Sequence record: NC_001332.1
DNA: 6,744 bases
Strand: one strand, 5' to 3'
From: Lineavirus I22
In this document: piece by piece, positions 1 through 6,744 of the stretch
Layout of the letters: each line of letters begins with the position of its first letter
Position numbering within the stretch: the first letter of the stretch is position 1
The notes under the pieces: generated by a model
The model's database searches: none
What the model was told of the DNA's origin: nothing
What the model saw: the letters and a program-made list of their open reading frames with translations, nothing else
Translations under genes and position numbers: made by a program

Positions 1-984
1 AAGCTTCATCATTTCCCGCAGGTAGGCAGATATGCAAAACAATGTCGTGTTATGCGCATTGCAGACAAGCCCACTTTAGAGGATTTAGAGGCCATTGGTC
101 GCGGCAATCTTTCTTATGATGAATCAAAAAACGGCCTTATTGTTTTAGATGAGTGTGGCACGTGGTTTAATTCCCGCAACTGGAGTGATAAAAGTCGCCA
201 GCCTGTTATAGACTGGTTTTTACATGCCCGTAAATTAGGCTGGGATGTAATTTTTATTATTCAGGATATTTCCCTGATGGATAAGCAGGCACGCGAGGCT
301 TTAGCCGAACATGTTGTTTATTGCCGTCGATTAGATAAATTAAATATACCTATCATTGGTGGTTTAATTTCGGTTCTTTCAGGTGGTAGATTGCCATTAC
401 CGAAAGTTCACTTTGGTATTGTTAAATATGGTGATAATCCTCAGTCATTAACTGTAGATAAATGGATTTATACTGGTACAGATTTATATGCTGCTTACGA
501 TACTAAGCAGATATTTACCAGTGACCGTGAATTAAGCCCGCCATTCTGCCCCGTTTCGCCTTATTACACTCATGGCATATTTGCCGTTAAAAGGGATGCT
601 AAATATTATATGCGTATGACAAAAATCTATTTTAAGAAGATGAATCGTGTTTGGTTAATGGCTTCCTTTCTTGCTCTTGGTGCTGGCGTAGGGTTTTTTT
701 ATAAATCTCGCCAGATAAATGAGCAACTATCAAATATGCCTGTAGCGTCTGCTCAGGCTAATACCACTAAAACAGATCACACCATTGATGAATTGCCACG
801 ATTATCGATCAACTCATTTGCACAAATGGGTTATGATGTAAATGTAAGTTTTAAAGATGCAAAGGGAAAAATCTATTACTCATTTGATTTAATGAAATCT
901 GGTTATGCCTTAGATATTAAAGATTCCTGTCATATTACATTGCGTAAACGAAACTACATTCAGCAAGTTACTTGTGAAGGCTAA
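1..984 (+). CDS. I: Gene I protein (pI, Zot-like assembly ATPase), C-terminal part; continues in frame from 6631..6744 across the circular junction
   Basis: Frame 1 is open from position 1 (KLHHFPQVGRYAKQCRVMRIADKP...), so the ORF-track Met at 52 is internal. IADKPTLEDLEAIGRGNLSYDESKNGLIVLDECGTWFNSRNWSDKSRQPVIDWFLHARKLGWDVIFIIQD...AEHVVYCRRLD is near-collinear with Ff pI as I recall it. Hydrophobic membrane span VWLMASFLALGAGVGFFY. Stop TAA at 982-984. Confidence 0.9.
   Translation, partial: KLHHFPQVGRYAKQCRVMRIADKPTLEDLEAIGRGNLSYDESKNGLIVLDECGTWFNSRNWSDKSRQPVIDWFLHARKLGWDVIFIIQDISLMDKQAREALAEHVVYCRRLDKLNIPIIGGLISVLSGGRLPLPKVHFGIVKYGDNPQSLTVDKWIYTGTDLYAAYDTKQIFTSDRELSPPFCPVSPYYTHGIFAVKRDAKYYMRMTKIYFKKMNRVWLMASFLALGAGVGFFYKSRQINEQLSNMPVASAQANTTKTDHTIDELPRLSINSFAQMGYDVNVSFKDAKGKIYYSFDLMKSGYALDIKDSCHITLRKRNYIQQVTCEG
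610..984 (+). CDS. XI: pXI (I*), internal in-frame translation start within gene I
   Basis: In-frame ATG at 610 (MRMTKIYFKKMNRVW...) aligns with the Ff pXI start (MKLTKIYLKK...) just upstream of the membrane span. By analogy with Ff; the start is not verifiable from sequence alone. Confidence 0.45.
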   Translation: MRMTKIYFKKMNRVWLMASFLALGAGVGFFYKSRQINEQLSNMPVASAQANTTKTDHTIDELPRLSINSFAQMGYDVNVSFKDAKGKIYYSFDLMKSGYALDIKDSCHITLRKRNYIQQVTCEG

Positions 985-986
985 TT

Positions 987-2273
987 ATGAAAACTTTTTT
1001 TGCTAAATTCATCGTCGCTTTATTTGCTTTTACTTATTTCTCTGCATTCGCGGAGCCTGTTACTTTAAACAATTCTCCTGTGCGCTCATTCGTTCAATGG
1101 TATTCATCCAAAACAGGAAAATCAGTTATTGTTAACCCTGATGTTAAGGGGAATATCACCGTATTTAATGCTGATGTTAACAACGCAAATATTGATGACT
1201 TTTTTAAGTCTGTCCTTAATGCTAACGGCCTTGTAGTTGTCGCTGGTAATCCTGCCGTTGTTTCCACACCTTTAACTAAGCTCGCGTCGCAGCCGTCAAA
1301 TGAAGAAACCTATGATGATGAAAGTGACGGCGTAGCGTATGAGGCAGTACCGCAGTCGGCTGCGCCTGCTGTACCTGCCGATCTCACGGTACGTAATTTC
1401 AACGTGACGCGCGTTCGTTCTTCTGACGTTCTGCCGCTGGCTAAGATTTTCGTTGATTCAAATGGCGGCGGTAATGTCGTCGATTACCCAGGCAATAACA
1501 GTCTTGTTGTTTCCGGCTCAGCTCAGGTTATGCCTGCTTTATCCGATTTCATTACGTCAATTGATGTTGCCCGCGAACAGGTTCTGATTCAGTCCCTGAT
1601 GTTTGAAACCAGTGTTTCTAATGGCGTGGATCTTTCTTTTGCGCTGGCTCTAGCTTCTGGCGGTAAAGTTGCAGGCGGTTTTAATACCTCAGCTCTCGGC
1701 ACTGCTCTTTCTACTGCTGGCGGTAGCTTCGGTATCTTTAACGGTAACATTCTGGCGTTATCTCTCCAGGCTGTTCAGAGTGATTCTAACTCTAAGGTTA
1801 TCTCTACCCCTCGCATCCTCACGCAGTCCGGCCAGAGTGGTTATATTTCAGTTGGCCAGAATGTTCCTTTTGTGACAGGTAAAGTCACTGGCGAGGCTGC
1901 AAGCGTTAATAATCCTTTCCAGACAATCGAGCGCCGCGACGTAGGCGTATCACTAAAGGTAACGCCGGTTGTTATGGGAAATGGTCAGTTAGTTCTCACC
2001 ATCGATACTAAAGCCGACTCTCTCAGCAATCAGGCGATTGCCTCTGACATCATTACCAATCAGCGCCAGATACAAACCACCGTTCAGATTAAAGACGGTC
2101 AGACCCTGCTTTTAGGCGGCCTGATTAGCTCTAACCAGTTCGACAGCGATCGTTCTGTGCCTTTTATGTCGAAGATTCCTTTAATCGGCTGGCTTTTCCG
2201 CAGCCATTCAGACTCGAAAGATGATCGCACTATGTTCGTTTTGCTTACTGCTCACGTTATCAGGGCGCTTTGA
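987..2273 (+). CDS. IV: pIV secretin (outer-membrane phage export channel)
   Basis: 428 aa. Signal peptide MKTFFAKFIVALFAFTYFSAFA then EPV. Long collinear stretches match Ff pIV as recalled (SVIVNPDVKG, AGGSFGIFNG, SKVISTPRILTQSGQSGYISVGQNVPFVTGKVTGEAASVNNPFQTIERRDVG, QTLLLGGL, VPFMSKIPLIGWLF). SD GAAGG at 976-980, 6 nt before the ATG. Confidence 0.95.
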   Translation: MKTFFAKFIVALFAFTYFSAFAEPVTLNNSPVRSFVQWYSSKTGKSVIVNPDVKGNITVFNADVNNANIDDFFKSVLNANGLVVVAGNPAVVSTPLTKLASQPSNEETYDDESDGVAYEAVPQSAAPAVPADLTVRNFNVTRVRSSDVLPLAKIFVDSNGGGNVVDYPGNNSLVVSGSAQVMPALSDFITSIDVAREQVLIQSLMFETSVSNGVDLSFALALASGGKVAGGFNTSALGTALSTAGGSFGIFNGNILALSLQAVQSDSNSKVISTPRILTQSGQSGYISVGQNVPFVTGKVTGEAASVNNPFQTIERRDVGVSLKVTPVVMGNGQLVLTIDTKADSLSNQAIASDIITNQRQIQTTVQIKDGQTLLLGGLISSNQFDSDRSVPFMSKIPLIGWLFRSHSDSKDDRTMFVLLTAHVIRAL

Positions 2274-2278
2274 GGGTG

Positions 2279-2305
2279 CGGGGTAGGTGCGTTAGCCCTG
2301 CCCCG
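2279..2305 (+). other. GC-rich hairpin just after the gene IV stop; candidate packaging (morphogenetic) signal or part of it
   Basis: 5' arm CGGGGTAGG (2279-2287) pairs with 3' arm CCTGCCCCG (2297-2305): 9 bp including one G-T wobble, 9-nt loop. No T-run follows, so not a classic intrinsic terminator. In Ff the packaging hairpin sits at this position. Confidence 0.4.
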
Positions 2306-2353
2306 TATCCTCACAGCGTCCCCTGACCCGTATCATTCGCTTATCGCCGTATG
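2295..2353 (+). repeat. Iteron-like direct repeats CCCTG(C/A)CCCGTATC with a third partial copy GCCGTATG
   Basis: GCCCTGCCCCGTATCC (2295-2310) and CCCCTGACCCGTATCA (2320-2335) are 25 nt apart with one mismatch in the 14-nt core. CCGTAT recurs at 2347-2352 and ACGTAT at 2380-2385. Confidence 0.4.
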
Positions 2354-2596: not shown

Positions 2597-2672
2597 CTGC
2601 ACGAAAGTCTCACTTTCGGGATTTTGGTTTTTGGATTTCTGCTGCGGAGTCAGGCGGGGCGGGGTGAACGTG
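2597..2672 (+). other. Nested inverted-repeat structure in a G-tract-rich segment; candidate ssDNA origin element (minus-strand priming site)
   Basis: CTGCACG (2597-2603) is complementary to CGTGCAG (2666-2672). Inner hairpin CGAAAGT-ctc-ACTTTCG (2602-2618). G-tracts at 2545-2550, 2582-2586 and 2655-2664. Functional assignment is inference. Confidence 0.3.
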
Positions 2673-2743
2673 CAGTGTATGTAATACTGCAACGTTTGTC
2701 TCAATCTGATACCTCTCTACTAAACGCCTCCTTTCTTTTTAAG

Positions 2744-2754
2744 CTCTTTAATCA
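2744..2754 (+). promoter_or_regulatory. Candidate plus-strand origin nick-site core (CTCTTTAATCA)
   Basis: Resembles the Ff pII nicking region TTCTTTAAT^AGTGG as I recall it (9 of 11 identical), in a T-rich context upstream of gene II. Hypothesis only. Confidence 0.25.
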
Positions 2755-3002
2755 TTTTCTTTTCTGCTAATTCTGTATAGTTTTCAATGACATAGTTTAA
2801 GTGAATCTGTCCATGTGACCTGTACGCCCGTACTTGTACTAATCCTGATCGCAGTATCACTCAGGTTTTTCTTTTTCTCGGTGGTGATACTGGCTGTTGT
2901 CCTAACTGGTTTTTTCATTTTATGCCTTTGAAAAATATAAAGTTTCTACCGAAAATAGGTTTTTAAGCGTAATCTTATTGTCAATAGATGTAAAAATTTT
3001 TG

Positions 3003-3030
3003 TTGCGCACGTTATTTTTCACGCTATCAT
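3003..3030 (+). promoter_or_regulatory. Candidate sigma70 promoter for gene II
   Basis: TTGCGC (3003-3008), 16-nt spacer, TATCAT (3025-3030), about 60 nt upstream of the gene II start in an AT-rich region. Imperfect hexamers. Confidence 0.3.
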
Positions 3031-3052
3031 GCCTGCATTGGATTTCATCTTG

Positions 3053-3070
3053 ATACGTGTATACACGTAT
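3053..3070. promoter_or_regulatory. 18-bp perfect palindrome ATACGTGTATACACGTAT in the gene II leader; candidate operator or RNA hairpin
   Basis: Self-complementary by inspection (core ACGTGTATACACGT, 3055-3068). Ends 9 nt before the SD (AGGG, 3080-3083) of gene II. Confidence 0.4.
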
Positions 3071-3090
3071 ACATCACTAAGGGAATGCGT

Positions 3091-4125
3091 ATGATTGATT
3101 GGGTTACAGCCGTCTTGCCTTGTCTGCATGTGCCTGTTGATGCTGGTCGCGTCCTCTCTGTTGCGCCGGATGGCTCTGTAGAATGGGAATCAGTAAAGTT
3201 TTCCCGCGTTACTGGCTCCTTTCAAAGCTCCATCAGTGTACGTTCGCAGGGTTCTGACGGTAATGGGAAAGCCACTCATTTATACGTTGATGGTAACCCG
3301 TCAAAGTGGTTGCAGGGTCATAATATCGTTGGAAGCGACGATCTCAACGGCCTTATGATTGCTTTTTACGCTCGTATGTTGTCACTACTCAATATACCTC
3401 ACCATCTAGAATCGTATCGTCAGGTGCTTTCTGGTCAGTACGAGCTAAAGCGCGTTGACATTAACTACATGTTTGAGCTTCCTACGCTCATTGATGTACG
3501 GTCATGGTTACATGCTGCTGAGTTCAAGGCTAAGACTCGTCACGGGCGCCCGGCAACTGCAAAGGGCACTCTGTACTTTGGTAAAAATTCTCGCCGTTGG
3601 TCTATTAAGGCTTACAGCAAATATGATGAAGTAAATTGCGGGAAAAAAGCTCATGGCGTTCCCGAAGAAATTAAGAAAACTGGCCTTGTTGAATGGTCTA
3701 AAAATAAATTACGTCTAGAATTAACATTACGCGCATTGCAGCTTACTGATATTAATTTAAACTTTGCTAAAAACTGGTCTACTGAAACTGCATATACTGT
3801 TTTTAAAGAATATATGGGGCGTATCGAAATGAGCGGAAATACTTTACTTACTGATACTCAAGTTATTAATTTACCGTCTGCGCTACGTATGACTTATGTG
3901 TGCTGGAAACAGGGCATTTGTGTAACAGATATGGTATCTCGCGCCACTTATTTTCGTCACCGCAAGGTTTTAAAAGAATTTGGTATTGATATTGCTGTTA
4001 CTGTTGATCGTGTTGATAATAGCAACGTTGTTCCGTTAATCCGTGTCTTAGAGGCTAAACCTGCTTCTATTCCTTCTCAATATGATAATTTAATATTTTC
4101 ATCTAATCGTGTATCAAGTTTCTAA
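3091..4125 (+). CDS. II: Gene II protein (rolling-circle replication initiator/nickase), divergent and shorter than Ff pII
   Basis: 344 aa from ATG 3091 (MIDWV..., compare Ff pII MIDMLV...). SD AGGG at 3080-3083 is 7 nt upstream; the ORF-track ATG at 3085 has no spacer. By-eye motif matches to Ff pII: SKWLQGHNIVGSDDL vs AKVLQGHNVFGTTDL, and NVVPLIRV vs NVVPLVRF near the C-terminus. The rest is poorly conserved; Ff pII is about 410 aa. Confidence 0.8.
   Translation: MIDWVTAVLPCLHVPVDAGRVLSVAPDGSVEWESVKFSRVTGSFQSSISVRSQGSDGNGKATHLYVDGNPSKWLQGHNIVGSDDLNGLMIAFYARMLSLLNIPHHLESYRQVLSGQYELKRVDINYMFELPTLIDVRSWLHAAEFKAKTRHGRPATAKGTLYFGKNSRRWSIKAYSKYDEVNCGKKAHGVPEEIKKTGLVEWSKNKLRLELTLRALQLTDINLNFAKNWSTETAYTVFKEYMGRIEMSGNTLLTDTQVINLPSALRMTYVCWKQGICVTDMVSRATYFRHRKVLKEFGIDIAVTVDRVDNSNVVPLIRVLEAKPASIPSQYDNLIFSSNRVSSF
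3829..4125 (+). CDS. X: pX, in-frame internal start within gene II (C-terminal domain product)
   Basis: In-frame ATGs at 3814 and 3829 (YMGRIEMSGN...) align with the Ff pX start (FEGDSMNIYDD). ATG 3829 has GGGG 7-12 nt upstream; 3814 is the alternative. By analogy only. Confidence 0.4.
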   Translation: MSGNTLLTDTQVINLPSALRMTYVCWKQGICVTDMVSRATYFRHRKVLKEFGIDIAVTVDRVDNSNVVPLIRVLEAKPASIPSQYDNLIFSSNRVSSF

Positions 4126-4135
4126 GGGGTTTTAA

Positions 4136-4462
4136 ATGCACTCAGGTATTCTTATTCGTGGTCGTATTCTCGGTTCTCGCACTGCAAACCGTGATAATAA
4201 TTCGCCGCAACATATTTTAGGCGTTGGCATTCAGAAAGCTGACGGTTTTGGCGGTACGACTCAGGATGTTGAGCAGGTTAAAATTCCTGACCAGCTTGTG
4301 CAAAGCGGCGTTGTTAATCAGATTAATTCGCTTATTGGCAAACTTTGCGAAGTACCGATTAATGTTCGTTCTTGGTCTATGAACGGCAAAAACGGCACTT
4401 CTTACACTCTGTCTTTTGAGTCCGGTATTCAGGAGATTGAAGAGCTGATTTATGTCAGATGA
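4136..4462 (+). CDS. Gene-V-position protein, putative ssDNA-binding protein; no recognisable similarity to Ff/IKe pV
   Basis: 108-aa ORF with SD AAGGGG (4124-4129) about 6 nt before the ATG, immediately after gene II and overlapping the gene VII start. Function inferred from synteny only; the sequence does not resemble Ff pV as I recall it. Confidence 0.6.
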   Translation: MHSGILIRGRILGSRTANRDNNSPQHILGVGIQKADGFGGTTQDVEQVKIPDQLVQSGVVNQINSLIGKLCEVPINVRSWSMNGKNGTSYTLSFESGIQEIEELIYVR

Positions 4463-4541
4463 ACTAATTCACGTAGTAATAGCTCTCGGCCTCGTTATTT
4501 CCTTCGGTTTGGGTGCTATTACTGCTGGGGTACTCCGATGA
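4452..4541 (+). CDS. VII: pVII-like minor coat protein
   Basis: 29-aa hydrophobic peptide MSDELIHVVIALGLVISFGLGAITAGVLR, comparable to Ff pVII. Start overlaps the gene V-position ORF stop by 11 nt; stop TGA overlaps the gene IX ATG (ATGA). Confidence 0.6.
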   Translation: MSDELIHVVIALGLVISFGLGAITAGVLR

Positions 4542-4639
4542 TTGACTATGTTGGTTTATTCATTGGCGCTTATATAATGGGCTTCGCCCTTTTCTATGGC
4601 ATAGGATTCTTTAAATCCATTGCTGAACGCATCGTTTAA
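4538..4639 (+). CDS. IX: pIX-like minor coat protein
   Basis: 33-aa hydrophobic peptide MIDYVGLFIGAYIMGFALFYGIGFFKSIAERIV, sitting between VII and VIII as in Ff. GGGG 6-9 nt upstream as SD. Confidence 0.6.
   Translation: MIDYVGLFIGAYIMGFALFYGIGFFKSIAERIV
4551..4578 (+). promoter_or_regulatory. Candidate sigma70 promoter for gene VIII, inside gene IX
   Basis: TTGGTT (4551-4556), 16-nt spacer, perfect TATAAT (4573-4578), about 75 nt upstream of the gene VIII ATG. Ff has a strong gene VIII promoter in the equivalent position. Confidence 0.4.
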
Positions 4640-4652
4640 TTAAGGAATACAC

Positions 4653-4907
4653 ATGAGCGTTATTACTAAAGTTGCTGCTGCTAAAAACAAAATCGTTGTT
4701 GGTGCTGGCCTGCTGATGGCTTCTGCTGGCGCGTTCGCTGCTGATGACGGTACTTCTACCGCTACCAGCTACGCTACTGAAGCAATGAACAGCCTGAAAA
4801 CTCAGGCAACTGATCTCATTGATCAGACGTGGCCTGTTGTAACTAGCGTTGCCGTTGCTGGTCTGGCAATTCGTCTTTTCAAGAAATTCTCTTCTAAAGC
4901 TGTTTAA
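4653..4907 (+). CDS. VIII: pVIII major coat protein precursor
   Basis: 84 aa. Signal peptide ending AFA, then an acidic N-terminus (ADDGTS), hydrophobic core and basic C-terminus. NYATEAM.SLKTQA.DLI.QTWPVV...AGL.IRLFKKFSSKAV is close to IKe/Ff pVIII as recalled. SD TAAGGAA at 4640-4646. Confidence 0.95.
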   Translation: MSVITKVAAAKNKIVVGAGLLMASAGAFAADDGTSTATSYATEAMNSLKTQATDLIDQTWPVVTSVAVAGLAIRLFKKFSSKAV

Positions 4908-4923
4908 TATTCAGCGTTTTCAA

Positions 4924-4949
4924 GGGGCGCTATTGCGCCCTTTTTTTTT
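4924..4949 (+). terminator. Rho-independent terminator after gene VIII
   Basis: GC stem GGGGCGC (4924-4930), loop TATT, GCGCCC (4935-4940), then nine T (4941-4949). Same position as the central terminator of Ff. Confidence 0.85.
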
Positions 4950-4974
4950 ACTTTAATTCAGCTAAGGTGTAATT

Positions 4975-6279
4975 GTGAAAAGAAAAATAATAGCAATTTC
5001 TTTATTTTTATACATCCCTTTGTCTAATGCTGATAATTGGGAGTCTATTACTAAAAGCTATTATACTGGCTTTGCCATGTCTAAAACTGTTGAATCAAAA
5101 GATCAGGATGGTAAAACAGTTCGTAAAGAGGTTATAACTCAGGCTGATTTAACTACCGCCTGTAATGATGCTAAAGCCTCCGCGCAAGATGTTTTTAATC
5201 AAATGAAGCTAACATTTTCTGGTATATGGCCTGATTCTCAGTTTCGCCTTGTAACTGGTGATACCTGCGTTTATAACGGTTCGCCTAGTGAAAAAACTGA
5301 AAGTTGGTCTATTCGCGCTCAGGTTGAGGGTGATATGCAACGTTCTGTACCAGATGAAGAACCTTCTGAACAAACGCCAGAAGAAATCTGTGAAGCAAAA
5401 CCTCCTATTGATGGCGTCTTTAATAACGTCTCTAAGGGTGACGAAGGAGGCTTTTATATTAATTATAATGGCTGCGAATATGAGGCAACTGGCGTCACTG
5501 TTTGCCAGAATGATGGAACTGTCTGTGCCTCCTCCGCTTGGAAGCCAACTGGTTACGTTCCCGAATCTGGAGAATCTTCCTCCTCTCCTGTGAAAGATGG
5601 TGACACTGGCGGTACTGGTGAAGGTGGTTCTGATACTGGCGGTGATACTGGTGGCGGTGATACTGGTGGTGGTTCTACTGGCGGCGATACTGGCGGTTCT
5701 ACTGGTGGCGGTTCTACTGGTGGCGGTTCTACTGGTGGATCAACTGGTAAATCACTGACAAAGGAAGATGTAACCGCAGCAATACATGATGCTTCCCCTT
5801 CTATTGGTGATGCTGTTAAAGATTCCCTTACAGAAGATAATGACCAGAACGACAATCAGAAGAAAGCAGATGAACAATCAGCTAAAGCCTCTGCTTCTGT
5901 ATCTGATGCTATCTCTGATGGTATGCGTGGCGTTGGTAATTTCGTTGACGATCTTGGCGGTGAGTCGTCGCAATACGGAATCGGTAATTCTGAAATGGAT
6001 CTCTCCGTTAGCCTGGCTAAAGGGCAACTTGGAATTGATCTTGAAGGTCATGGTTCAGCTTGGGAATCCTTTTTAAATGACGGTGCTTTACGTCCCTCCA
6101 TTCCTTCTGGTCATGGCTGTACTGATTTTGTCATGTTTCAGGGTTCTGTTTATCAGCTTGATATTGGCTGCGATAAATTAGGCGATATTAAGTCTGTATT
6201 ATCTTGGGTTATGTATTGCCTTACCTTCTGGTATGTATTCCAGTCTGCTACTTCATTACTTCGTAAAGGTGAACAATAA
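4975..6279 (+). CDS. III: pIII minor coat / adsorption protein
   Basis: 434 aa with GTG start (Ff gene III also starts with GTG). Signal peptide [19 protein letters not shown], Cys-containing N-terminal receptor-binding domains, Gly/Ser/Thr/Asp-rich linker, hydrophobic C-terminal anchor ([15 protein letters not shown]). Stop TAA overlaps the gene VI ATG (TAATG). Confidence 0.9.
5599..5748 (+). repeat. Imperfect tandem 15-nt repeats encoding the glycine-rich pIII linker
   Basis: Repeated GGTGGCGGTTCTACT-like units encoding [50 protein letters not shown]. Confidence 0.85.
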
Positions 6280-6629
6280 TGCCAGCTTTATTAGGTATTC
6301 CGGCTTTAATTCGTTTCATAATGGGGCTTGTGCCTCTTGCTATTGGTTATTTTGCTAAGTTCTTAGGCAAAATTATTACCCGTAATGGCTTGATGGCTGC
6401 TGCCTTGATTGGTGCGATCCTTTCATTTGTCACCTTTGCAATTCAGCTTTTAGGCGATGCTTTATCTTCTGCAATGGGCGGAATGCCTGCTGATTTTGGA
6501 AATTTAATGTCCTCTGTATTACCTGATGGTACAACAACTTGTATTACAGTAATTATAGACTACCAGATAGCGGTCTTTGTTTTCGATATTAAAGATCGCT
6601 TACTCGGCATTGCCAATAAGGTAATTTGA
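6279..6629 (+). CDS. VI: pVI minor coat protein
   Basis: 116-aa hydrophobic protein. N-terminus [13 protein letters not shown] matches Ff pVI MPVLLGIPLLLRF; C-terminal [11 protein letters not shown] matches AAIFIFDVKQK. Confidence 0.9.
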
Positions 6630-6630
6630 T

Positions 6631-6744
6631 ATGGCTGTTTATGTTGTTACCGGAAAATTAGGCGCAGGCAAGACGCTTGTAGCTGTATCGCGTATACAAA
6701 GGACTTTAGCTAAAGGTGGTATTGTTGCCACCAATCTAAATTTA
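6631..6744 (+). CDS. I: Gene I protein (pI), N-terminal 38 codons; continues at window position 1
   Basis: MAVYVVTGKLGAGKTLVAVSRIQ... contains the Walker A P-loop GKLGAGKT and matches the Ff pI N-terminus (MAVYFVTGKLGSGKTLVSV). Frame (6631+114=6745) joins frame 1 of the window start exactly. Confidence 0.9.
   Translation, partial: MAVYVVTGKLGAGKTLVAVSRIQRTLAKGGIVATNLNL

Follow-up and report, generated by a model that had tools for sequence, protein, structure and literature searches.

In phage f1, translation of gene VII is coupled to that of the preceding gene V and translation of gene IX to that of gene VII; the V/VII coupling, which is established for f1 and with which the work on IKe is consistent, has been described for both phages (Ivey-Hoyle & Steege, 1989, 1992; ref. 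42 in PMC12548453 for IKe; PMC12548453; PMC7697814). A hairpin inside f1 gene VII is thought to make translation of IX depend on translation of VII (Blumer et al., as cited in PMC12548453). PMC7307601 also notes, in connection with YpfPhi, a modular split of genes II and V from the rest of the genome between the UPphi phages and YpfPhi/CUSPhi. Here we describe the equivalent region of the filamentous phage I2-2 (Lineavirus I22, NC_001332 / X14336), whose complete circular genome of 6744 nt is the whole stretch of DNA analysed (the window), and in which positions 4436-4545 form the right-hand joint between a replication module, containing the origin, gene II/X and a PF17426-type gene V, and a morphogenesis module of the IKe type. 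The exchange of modules in I2-2 has served as a textbook case of modular phage evolution since 1992, when Stassen et al. reportedly described one contiguous block of ~4.6 kb homologous to IKe/Ff together with a non-homologous stretch carrying the origins and replication genes, and the gene arrangement at the joint is ordinary for filamentous phages; what is new here is a breakpoint placed within 3 nt, a probable database error beside it and the repeated use of the V|VII boundary.

The genes of the window are arranged in the order end of gene I, gene IV, intergenic region, gene II-like, V-position gene, VII, IX, VIII, III, VI and start of gene I (coordinates of the features are collected in Table 1), and the V-position protein and pIII agree residue for residue with UniProt P15417 (G5P_BPI22, NP_039617.1) and P15415 (G3P_BPI22, NP_039621.1) respectively, both recorded from a sequence of 6744 nt like the window. 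The genomes used for comparison include IKe (L001), Erwinia phage PEar1 (L002) and NZ_CP098188.1 (L003), an inovirus replicative form that is filed as an E. coli plasmid. In BLAST alignments the block homologous to IKe and PEar1 continues across the ends of the window, as the genome is circular, and extends from 4465 (IKe) or 4458 (PEar1) to 2303/2307, a length of 4583-4594 nt; the segment 2308..4457 gives no DNA alignment to either phage apart from two islands of 30 nt. Left of 4454 the closest relative is NZ_CP098188.1 (84 %), right of 4458 the closest are IKe (89 %) and PEar1 (81 %), and identity to each of them drops to 14-30 % beyond the joint, so that a sharp step in identity coincides with a change of nearest relative, as expected of a mosaic genome formed by module exchange. 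Ungapped counts give the same picture: PEar1 matches at 18 of 60 bases before 4458 and at 63 of 81 from 4458 onward, a step that is far beyond chance, and L003 matches at 11 of the 16 nt upstream of the VII ATG and at 8 of the 58 nt that follow it. Matches to the replication-module relative stop at 4454 and those to the IKe-like phages begin at 4458, which puts the crossover at the start codon of gene VII, in the interval 4455-4457. The initial annotation had proposed that a replication module meets a conserved morphogenesis module here, with the breakpoint within a few tens of nucleotides of 4450. Both proposals are borne out, the first by the different protein families and nearest relatives on the two sides, and the second by an interval now bracketed from both parents; homology resumes at 4458/4465, neither inside the V-position ORF (open reading frame) nor well downstream of the junction.

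The proteins encoded on either side change parentage at the same place. The V-position protein belongs to PF17426 and gives no match at E <= 0.1 to PF02303 (Phage_DNA_bind), the Ff/IKe gene V type to which IKe pV belongs (82.9 bits); BLASTP finds no similarity between the two proteins (E = 0.44). It is a putative single-stranded DNA-binding protein, a function assumed from the name of its family and its place behind gene II. The gene II protein is 23 % identical to that of IKe and both are members of PF05144 and PF05155, and I2-2 pVII is 76-79 % identical to IKe and PEar1 pVII from residue 2 on. In L003, TAA-TCT-ATG comes after a V-like gene of 103 aa, and beyond it lie an unrelated 66-aa ORF and a different set of structural genes. 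The ATG of gene VII is common to both parents, and all of the sequence through the stop codon of V, the spacer and this ATG belongs to the lineage of the replication module.

In the sequence as deposited, the VII ATG (4452-4454) precedes the V-ORF stop codon TGA (4460-4462), and the two genes overlap by 11 nt, ATGTCAGATGA. The initial annotation placed the V-position ORF at 4136..4462, the VII ATG at 4452, 11 nt inside its end, and an ATGA at the VII stop and IX start, and all of these coordinates are correct for the record. Its description of the genes as chained by overlaps holds for VII and IX, whose ATGA is kept in relatives, but not for V and VII, whose overlap depends on one extra G private to the record. 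The V genes of L004, L006 and L061-L072 all end at the TGA corresponding to 4446..4448, followed by TTT and then ATG. Plasmid records, IMG/VR, metagenomes and read-archive assemblies supplied a wider set of 25 other I2-2-like loci, of which a few are a single contig reached by two routes; in all 25 the V product is either 103 aa long with TGA-TTT-ATG or 107 aa long with TGA-TT-ATG, and none has the 11-nt overlap. A scan of genome contigs with the V protein yielded no confirmed relative, the relatives coming instead via viral, plasmid, metagenome and protein-cluster collections. The nearest of them, L069, is 99.4 % identical to I2-2 in gene II and 98.7 % in gene V, and its junction, CAGGAGATT-AAGAGCTGATTTATGTCAGATGAACT, differs from the window solely by lacking G4439. 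Without G4439 the sequence reads ATTAAGAGCTGA and the junction TGATTTATG; deletion of the base restores TGA-TTT-ATG and replaces the 108 aa ending in ...IEELIYVR by a V protein of 103 aa ending in ...GIQEIKS before the stop, in keeping with the family ends QELKS, LELKG, AEIKG and TEIKG. The 90 % protein cluster of V has seven other members, six of 103 aa and one of 87 aa. Position 4439 was assigned to the extra base by MAFFT; deletion of 4435 or 4436 instead would yield the tail of more distant relatives, and it is L069 that settles the matter for G4439. The 11-nt overlap comes from one base private to the record and is not a feature of the lineage.

The record contains two further private frame anomalies, both of which interrupt conserved protein sequence. 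In gene VI a compensated pair of changes (+1 at 6557, -1 at 6566) puts IIDYQ in pVI at the residues that are I[MI]TTR in IKe, PEar1, L004 and L017; the sequence expected without record errors is ATGACTAC(C/A)AGAATA, and the pair is probably a sequencing error in the reference. An extra base at ~2798 splits a 65-aa minus-strand ORF (window 2720-2918) into ORFs 2784..2918 and 2720..2860, whereas the frame is unbroken in every relative, those of the L003 type among them (L006 87-284, L004 6188-6388, L003 5860-6057, and L061-L070). The conserved 65-aa ORF matches no Pfam family, appears to have been unrecognised in I2-2 and lies divergently from gene II, a position that suggests a small regulator. 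With G4439 the record has three private frame problems of a single base each, which in a sequence of the Sanger era point to reading errors, and we think it likely that the extra G at the joint is an error of the 1992 sequence, with a private mutation of the sequenced isolate as the distinctly less probable origin. In neither case is the overlap a device for coupling that evolved or was re-created.

If G4439 is set aside, I2-2 has a V stop, a 3-nt spacer and the VII ATG. Of the PF17426-type modules examined, all but two have the ATG of the next gene 0-3 nt after the V stop, whatever gene that is; for the two exceptions, L059 and L060, no unambiguous start could be assigned. The genes found downstream are an IKe-type pVII of 29 or 28 aa (I2-2-like and UPphi-like phages), a 66-aa ORF (L003, L020), an 83-aa ORF (L018 and many others) and a 38-aa ORF (L024), and V proteins that are 91-100 % identical to that of L017 precede the 28-aa pVII, the 83-aa ORF or the 38-aa ORF. 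Where two such V genes have different partners, identity is 75-90 % over the final 60 nt of V and 18-28 % over the 60 nt that begin after the ATG; L005 was left out of these ungapped comparisons because of a 12-nt insertion in its V tail. L017, with an IKe-type pVII, and L018, with the 83-aa gene, share genes II and V at 80 % identity over a stretch running from the ATG of gene II to a point 2 nt beyond the ATG of the gene that follows V. This pair repeats the split noted with YpfPhi, and its boundary falls on that second start codon; the II/V lineage involved is distinct from that of I2-2 (~40 % identity in V), and the passages of PMC7307601 consulted describe neither the exact boundary nor the stop-spacer-ATG geometry. 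In L024 (2185-2190) a V protein 93 % identical to that of L017 ends in TAAATG, a 0-nt spacer, and is followed by an unrelated, very hydrophobic 38-aa ORF.

Because the same geometry stands before at least four unrelated genes, the II-V block has evidently been exchanged several times at exactly the boundary between V and the next gene. IKe and PEar1 have ATGA at V/VII and the I2-2 lineage has stop + 3 nt + ATG (-11 nt in the record), so that the junction of I2-2 is of the donor type and the IKe-type ATGA has not been kept. In M13 the two genes are separated by a 1-nt spacer. The initial annotation had supposed that coupling was preserved or re-created at the joint; this is not supported, as the stop-spacer-ATG geometry came with the incoming replication module, which has it before any partner. 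Selection is the simplest account of the position of the breakpoint on the start codon: with a spacing of 0-3 nt, viable recombinants that keep V, the next gene and their coupling would have to join there.

The start of gene VII has, as had been noted from the sequence, at best a weak Shine-Dalgarno (SD) sequence. Pairing with the anti-SD sequence at -15..-4 amounts to -2.1 kcal/mol at its best, which is background level (32 % of all window positions are as good); the values for V, IX and VIII are -7.7, -6.0 and -6.1 kcal/mol, within a full gene range of -0.1 (gene II, 3085) to -7.7. No SD sequence at a working distance from VII was found in the window or in the relatives. The locus shows two features of an f1-type coupled pair, a V stop a few nucleotides from the VII start (-11 in the record, +2/+3 in the 25 loci) and a VII start with no working SD. 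Like f1/M13 and IKe, I2-2 has a gene for a small hydrophobic pVII that is devoid of a usable ribosome-binding site and starts a few nucleotides from the stop of an abundantly translated gene V; unlike them, its upstream gene is a non-homologous V (PF17426, not PF02303). Ribosomes finishing gene V would re-initiate at the nearby VII AUG, which by itself would be unable to recruit them. Further downstream, the VII TGA (4539-4541) overlaps the IX ATG (4538-4540) as ATGA, and the same is found in IKe, PEar1 and the I2-2-like genomes, with TAATG in L017. A hairpin is predicted inside gene VII; its extended stem stops 6 nt short of the IX ATG and takes in part of the IX SD sequence (GGGG, 4526-4529). 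When 4420-4560 was folded in one piece, no structure of significance emerged (z = -0.78), the gene VII hairpin alone standing out, and that modestly. The -4 ATGA overlap is like that of f1, and the long hairpin predicted inside VII, just upstream of the IX start, resembles the one in f1, at modest significance and with little covariation. Synthesis of pIX could then follow by way of the conserved ATGA overlap, aided by ribosomes that open the hairpin as they translate VII.

We consider it very probable that the explanation as a whole is correct, that is, a joint at the VII start codon, a private extra G, translational coupling and selection on the position of the joint. Several points weigh against it. 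We infer V to VII coupling in I2-2 from the geometry, the lack of an SD sequence and the f1 and IKe precedents; the gene VII hairpin is modest and, while it is kept in 6 Lineavirus-type sequences with 1-2 pairs changed on both sides, this is confounded by conservation of the pVII protein; and the V tail varies within the family (103, 105 or 107 aa) and so might tolerate a real private frameshift. If such a frameshift existed, the 11-nt overlap would be genuine, with a true +1 frameshift at 4439, a 108-aa pV and ribosomes that stop at 4460-4462 and move back 8 nt to the VII AUG. The sequence does read so as deposited, the Pfam match (residues 1-101) leaves out the C-terminal tail, which is variable in length in relatives, so that an altered tail may be tolerated, and post-termination ribosomes can reportedly reach nearby upstream start codons, as Adhin and van Duin are said to have found in 1990. 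We nevertheless find a genuine overlap rather unlikely, as the base is absent from all 25 related loci, including the one so nearly identical in gene II, and the compensated pair in gene VI and the split 65-aa ORF complete a pattern typical of gel-reading errors. Coupling would be dispensable if VII were translated independently from the AGGAG at 4431-4435, which pairs with the anti-SD sequence at -7.4 kcal/mol. This motif is 16 nt from the VII AUG and thus outside the working range, forms Gln-Glu codons of V, is missing from L005-type relatives (-0.7 kcal/mol) and from IKe and PEar1, and would serve a gene whose f1 counterpart has a site reported as intrinsically defective; independent translation of VII from it is very improbable, and we rejected AGGAG as the SD sequence of VII for its overlong spacing and lack of conservation.

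The history of the joint can also be read in other ways. That no exchange occurred, and that the replication genes of I2-2 merely diverged faster from an IKe-like ancestor, might be thought from the gene II proteins, which at 23 % identity are still in the same Pfam families. However, identity changes from 30 % to 78 % as a step of a few nucleotides, the V proteins are of different families with no similarity, and the same II/V module is present at 84 % in a phage with unrelated structural genes; the match to L003, the unrelated V families and the abrupt step together refute this reading, to which we attach next to no probability. Another reading is a reversed direction of exchange, in which II/V of the PF17426 type would be ancestral to the I2-2/IKe/UPphi group and the IKe/PEar phages would have taken up Ff-type II/V at the same boundary. 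UPphi-like phages (L017 and many others) have structural genes with 64-75 % DNA identity to those of I2-2 and a PF19978 pVII, and also carry a PF17426-type V beside it; I2-2 and L017 diverge alike in both modules (~64 % in II, 67-75 % in the structural genes). Against this, with Ff as an outgroup carrying IKe-type II/V, two gains suffice where the reverse direction needs three or more events, on a count that is itself an interpretation, and for both II/V modules, that of I2-2 (84 %) and that of L017 (80 %), a much closer relative occurs in phages whose structural genes are unrelated. Because of this event count and these closer relatives, two independent gains of II/V by IKe-like backbones are mildly favoured, and the reverse direction seems to us unlikely, with some real weight left to it.

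Table 1. Features of the I2-2 joint and of the modules that meet there (window coordinates)
Feature	Coordinates	Strand	Basis or remarks
Morphogenesis module, second part: rest of gene I, gene IV, ~30 nt past gene IV stop	1..2307	+	75-76 % identity to IKe/PEar1 over 1..2303/2307
Replication module: origin region, minus-strand small ORF, gene II/X, V-position gene	2598..4454	+	84.3 % identity to NZ_CP098188.1, ending at G of gene VII ATG
V-position ORF as in record, 108 aa	4136..4462	+	Pfam PF17426 Putative_G5P, 88.6 bits (cutoff 25), residues 1-101
Extra G private to record	4439	+	Absent from all 14 close relatives aligned; pushes V frame beyond normal stop
TGA, V stop in relatives	4446..4448	+	Alignments; in record out of V frame and in frame with gene VII
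Gene VII, 29 aa, IKe-type minor coat protein	4452..4541	+	PF19978 Inovirus_G7P_2, 57.7 bits (cutoff 27)
Breakpoint interval, codon TCA	4455..4457	+	BLAST ends and ungapped counts; last base matching replication-module relative 4454, first matching IKe/PEar1 4458
Morphogenesis module, first part: VII, IX, VIII, III, VI, gene I start	4458..6744	+	88.9 % identity to IKe (4465..6741), 80.8 % to PEar1 (4458..6741)
Predicted RNA hairpin inside gene VII, core GTAATAGC / GCTATTAC	4473..4524 (extended stem 4467-4531)	+	Minimum free energy z = -1.96; 8/200 shuffles fold as well
Gene IX, 33 aa	4538..4639	+	PHROG 28333, E = 9.5e-24

The left-hand joint of the replication module is not clean: homology to IKe ends at ~2303-2307 and homology to L003 begins at 2598. 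Between them (2308-2597) lie two islands of 30 nt: that at 2400-2429 matches IKe 6332-6361, which is annotated as a hairpin of the minus-strand origin, and that at 2476-2507 matches IKe 6481-6511. In L004, 77 nt are inserted at window 2427. At 2666-2717 an element of ~50 nt, which contains the inverted repeat TGCAGT...ACTGCA, recurs at 90-94 % identity in L017, L018 and L003, and is 88-90 % identical to a stretch in many small plasmids of ~1.4-4.2 kb (mostly ~2.1-2.4 kb) from E. coli, Klebsiella and Salmonella. It is a candidate for the plus-strand origin/nick site, or for a single-strand initiation signal, of this type of gene II. The first ATG of gene II itself (3085) has no SD sequence (-0.1 kcal/mol at -15..-4), and AAGGGA precedes the ATG at 3091 by 5 nt; a start at 3091 gives 344 aa, the length called in relatives, and the 346-aa form is absent from the protein collection searched, so that 3091 is probably the true start.

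In the morphogenesis module, gene III (4975-6279) is the most divergent gene relative to L004 and L061-L070 (82-87 %, against 96-99 % elsewhere), with 9-nt indels in the Gly-rich linker and pIII lengths in relatives of 419, 427, 434 or 441 aa, which suggests diversification or exchange of the receptor-binding protein. Several of the relatives used here (L003, L004, L017 and L018) are inovirus replicative forms filed as 'plasmids' of E. coli, Klebsiella and Salmonella. NZ_CP098188.1 (14,367 bp) looks like a head-to-tail dimer, one copy of which has a frameshifted gene II and rearranged structural genes, and L017 carries a gene for a death-on-curing family toxin in its intergenic region.

The anomalies in the record affect users of I2-2 as a reference for annotation or structure work, since the C-terminus of pV is probably wrong in P15417 and in the reference record (108 aa, where it should be 103 aa), as is probably a stretch of 4 residues in pVI, and the conserved 65-aa ORF has been missed. 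A bolder possibility is that the start codon after gene V is a mechanistic recombination hot spot in enterobacterial inoviruses and not just a joint that selection tolerates, perhaps because template switching or strand exchange is favoured where the II-V transcript or replication unit, heavily regulated by pV, comes to an end. We regard such a hot spot as quite improbable; if real, it would explain how one II/V lineage came to be fused at the same nucleotide to at least four structural modules (those with the 29/28-aa pVII and the 66-aa, 83-aa and 38-aa ORFs). Its reuse by several lineages makes the V|VII boundary a clean natural cut site for the engineering of chimeric filamentous phages, and the coupling geometry found there was inherited with the replication module, not rebuilt at the joint.

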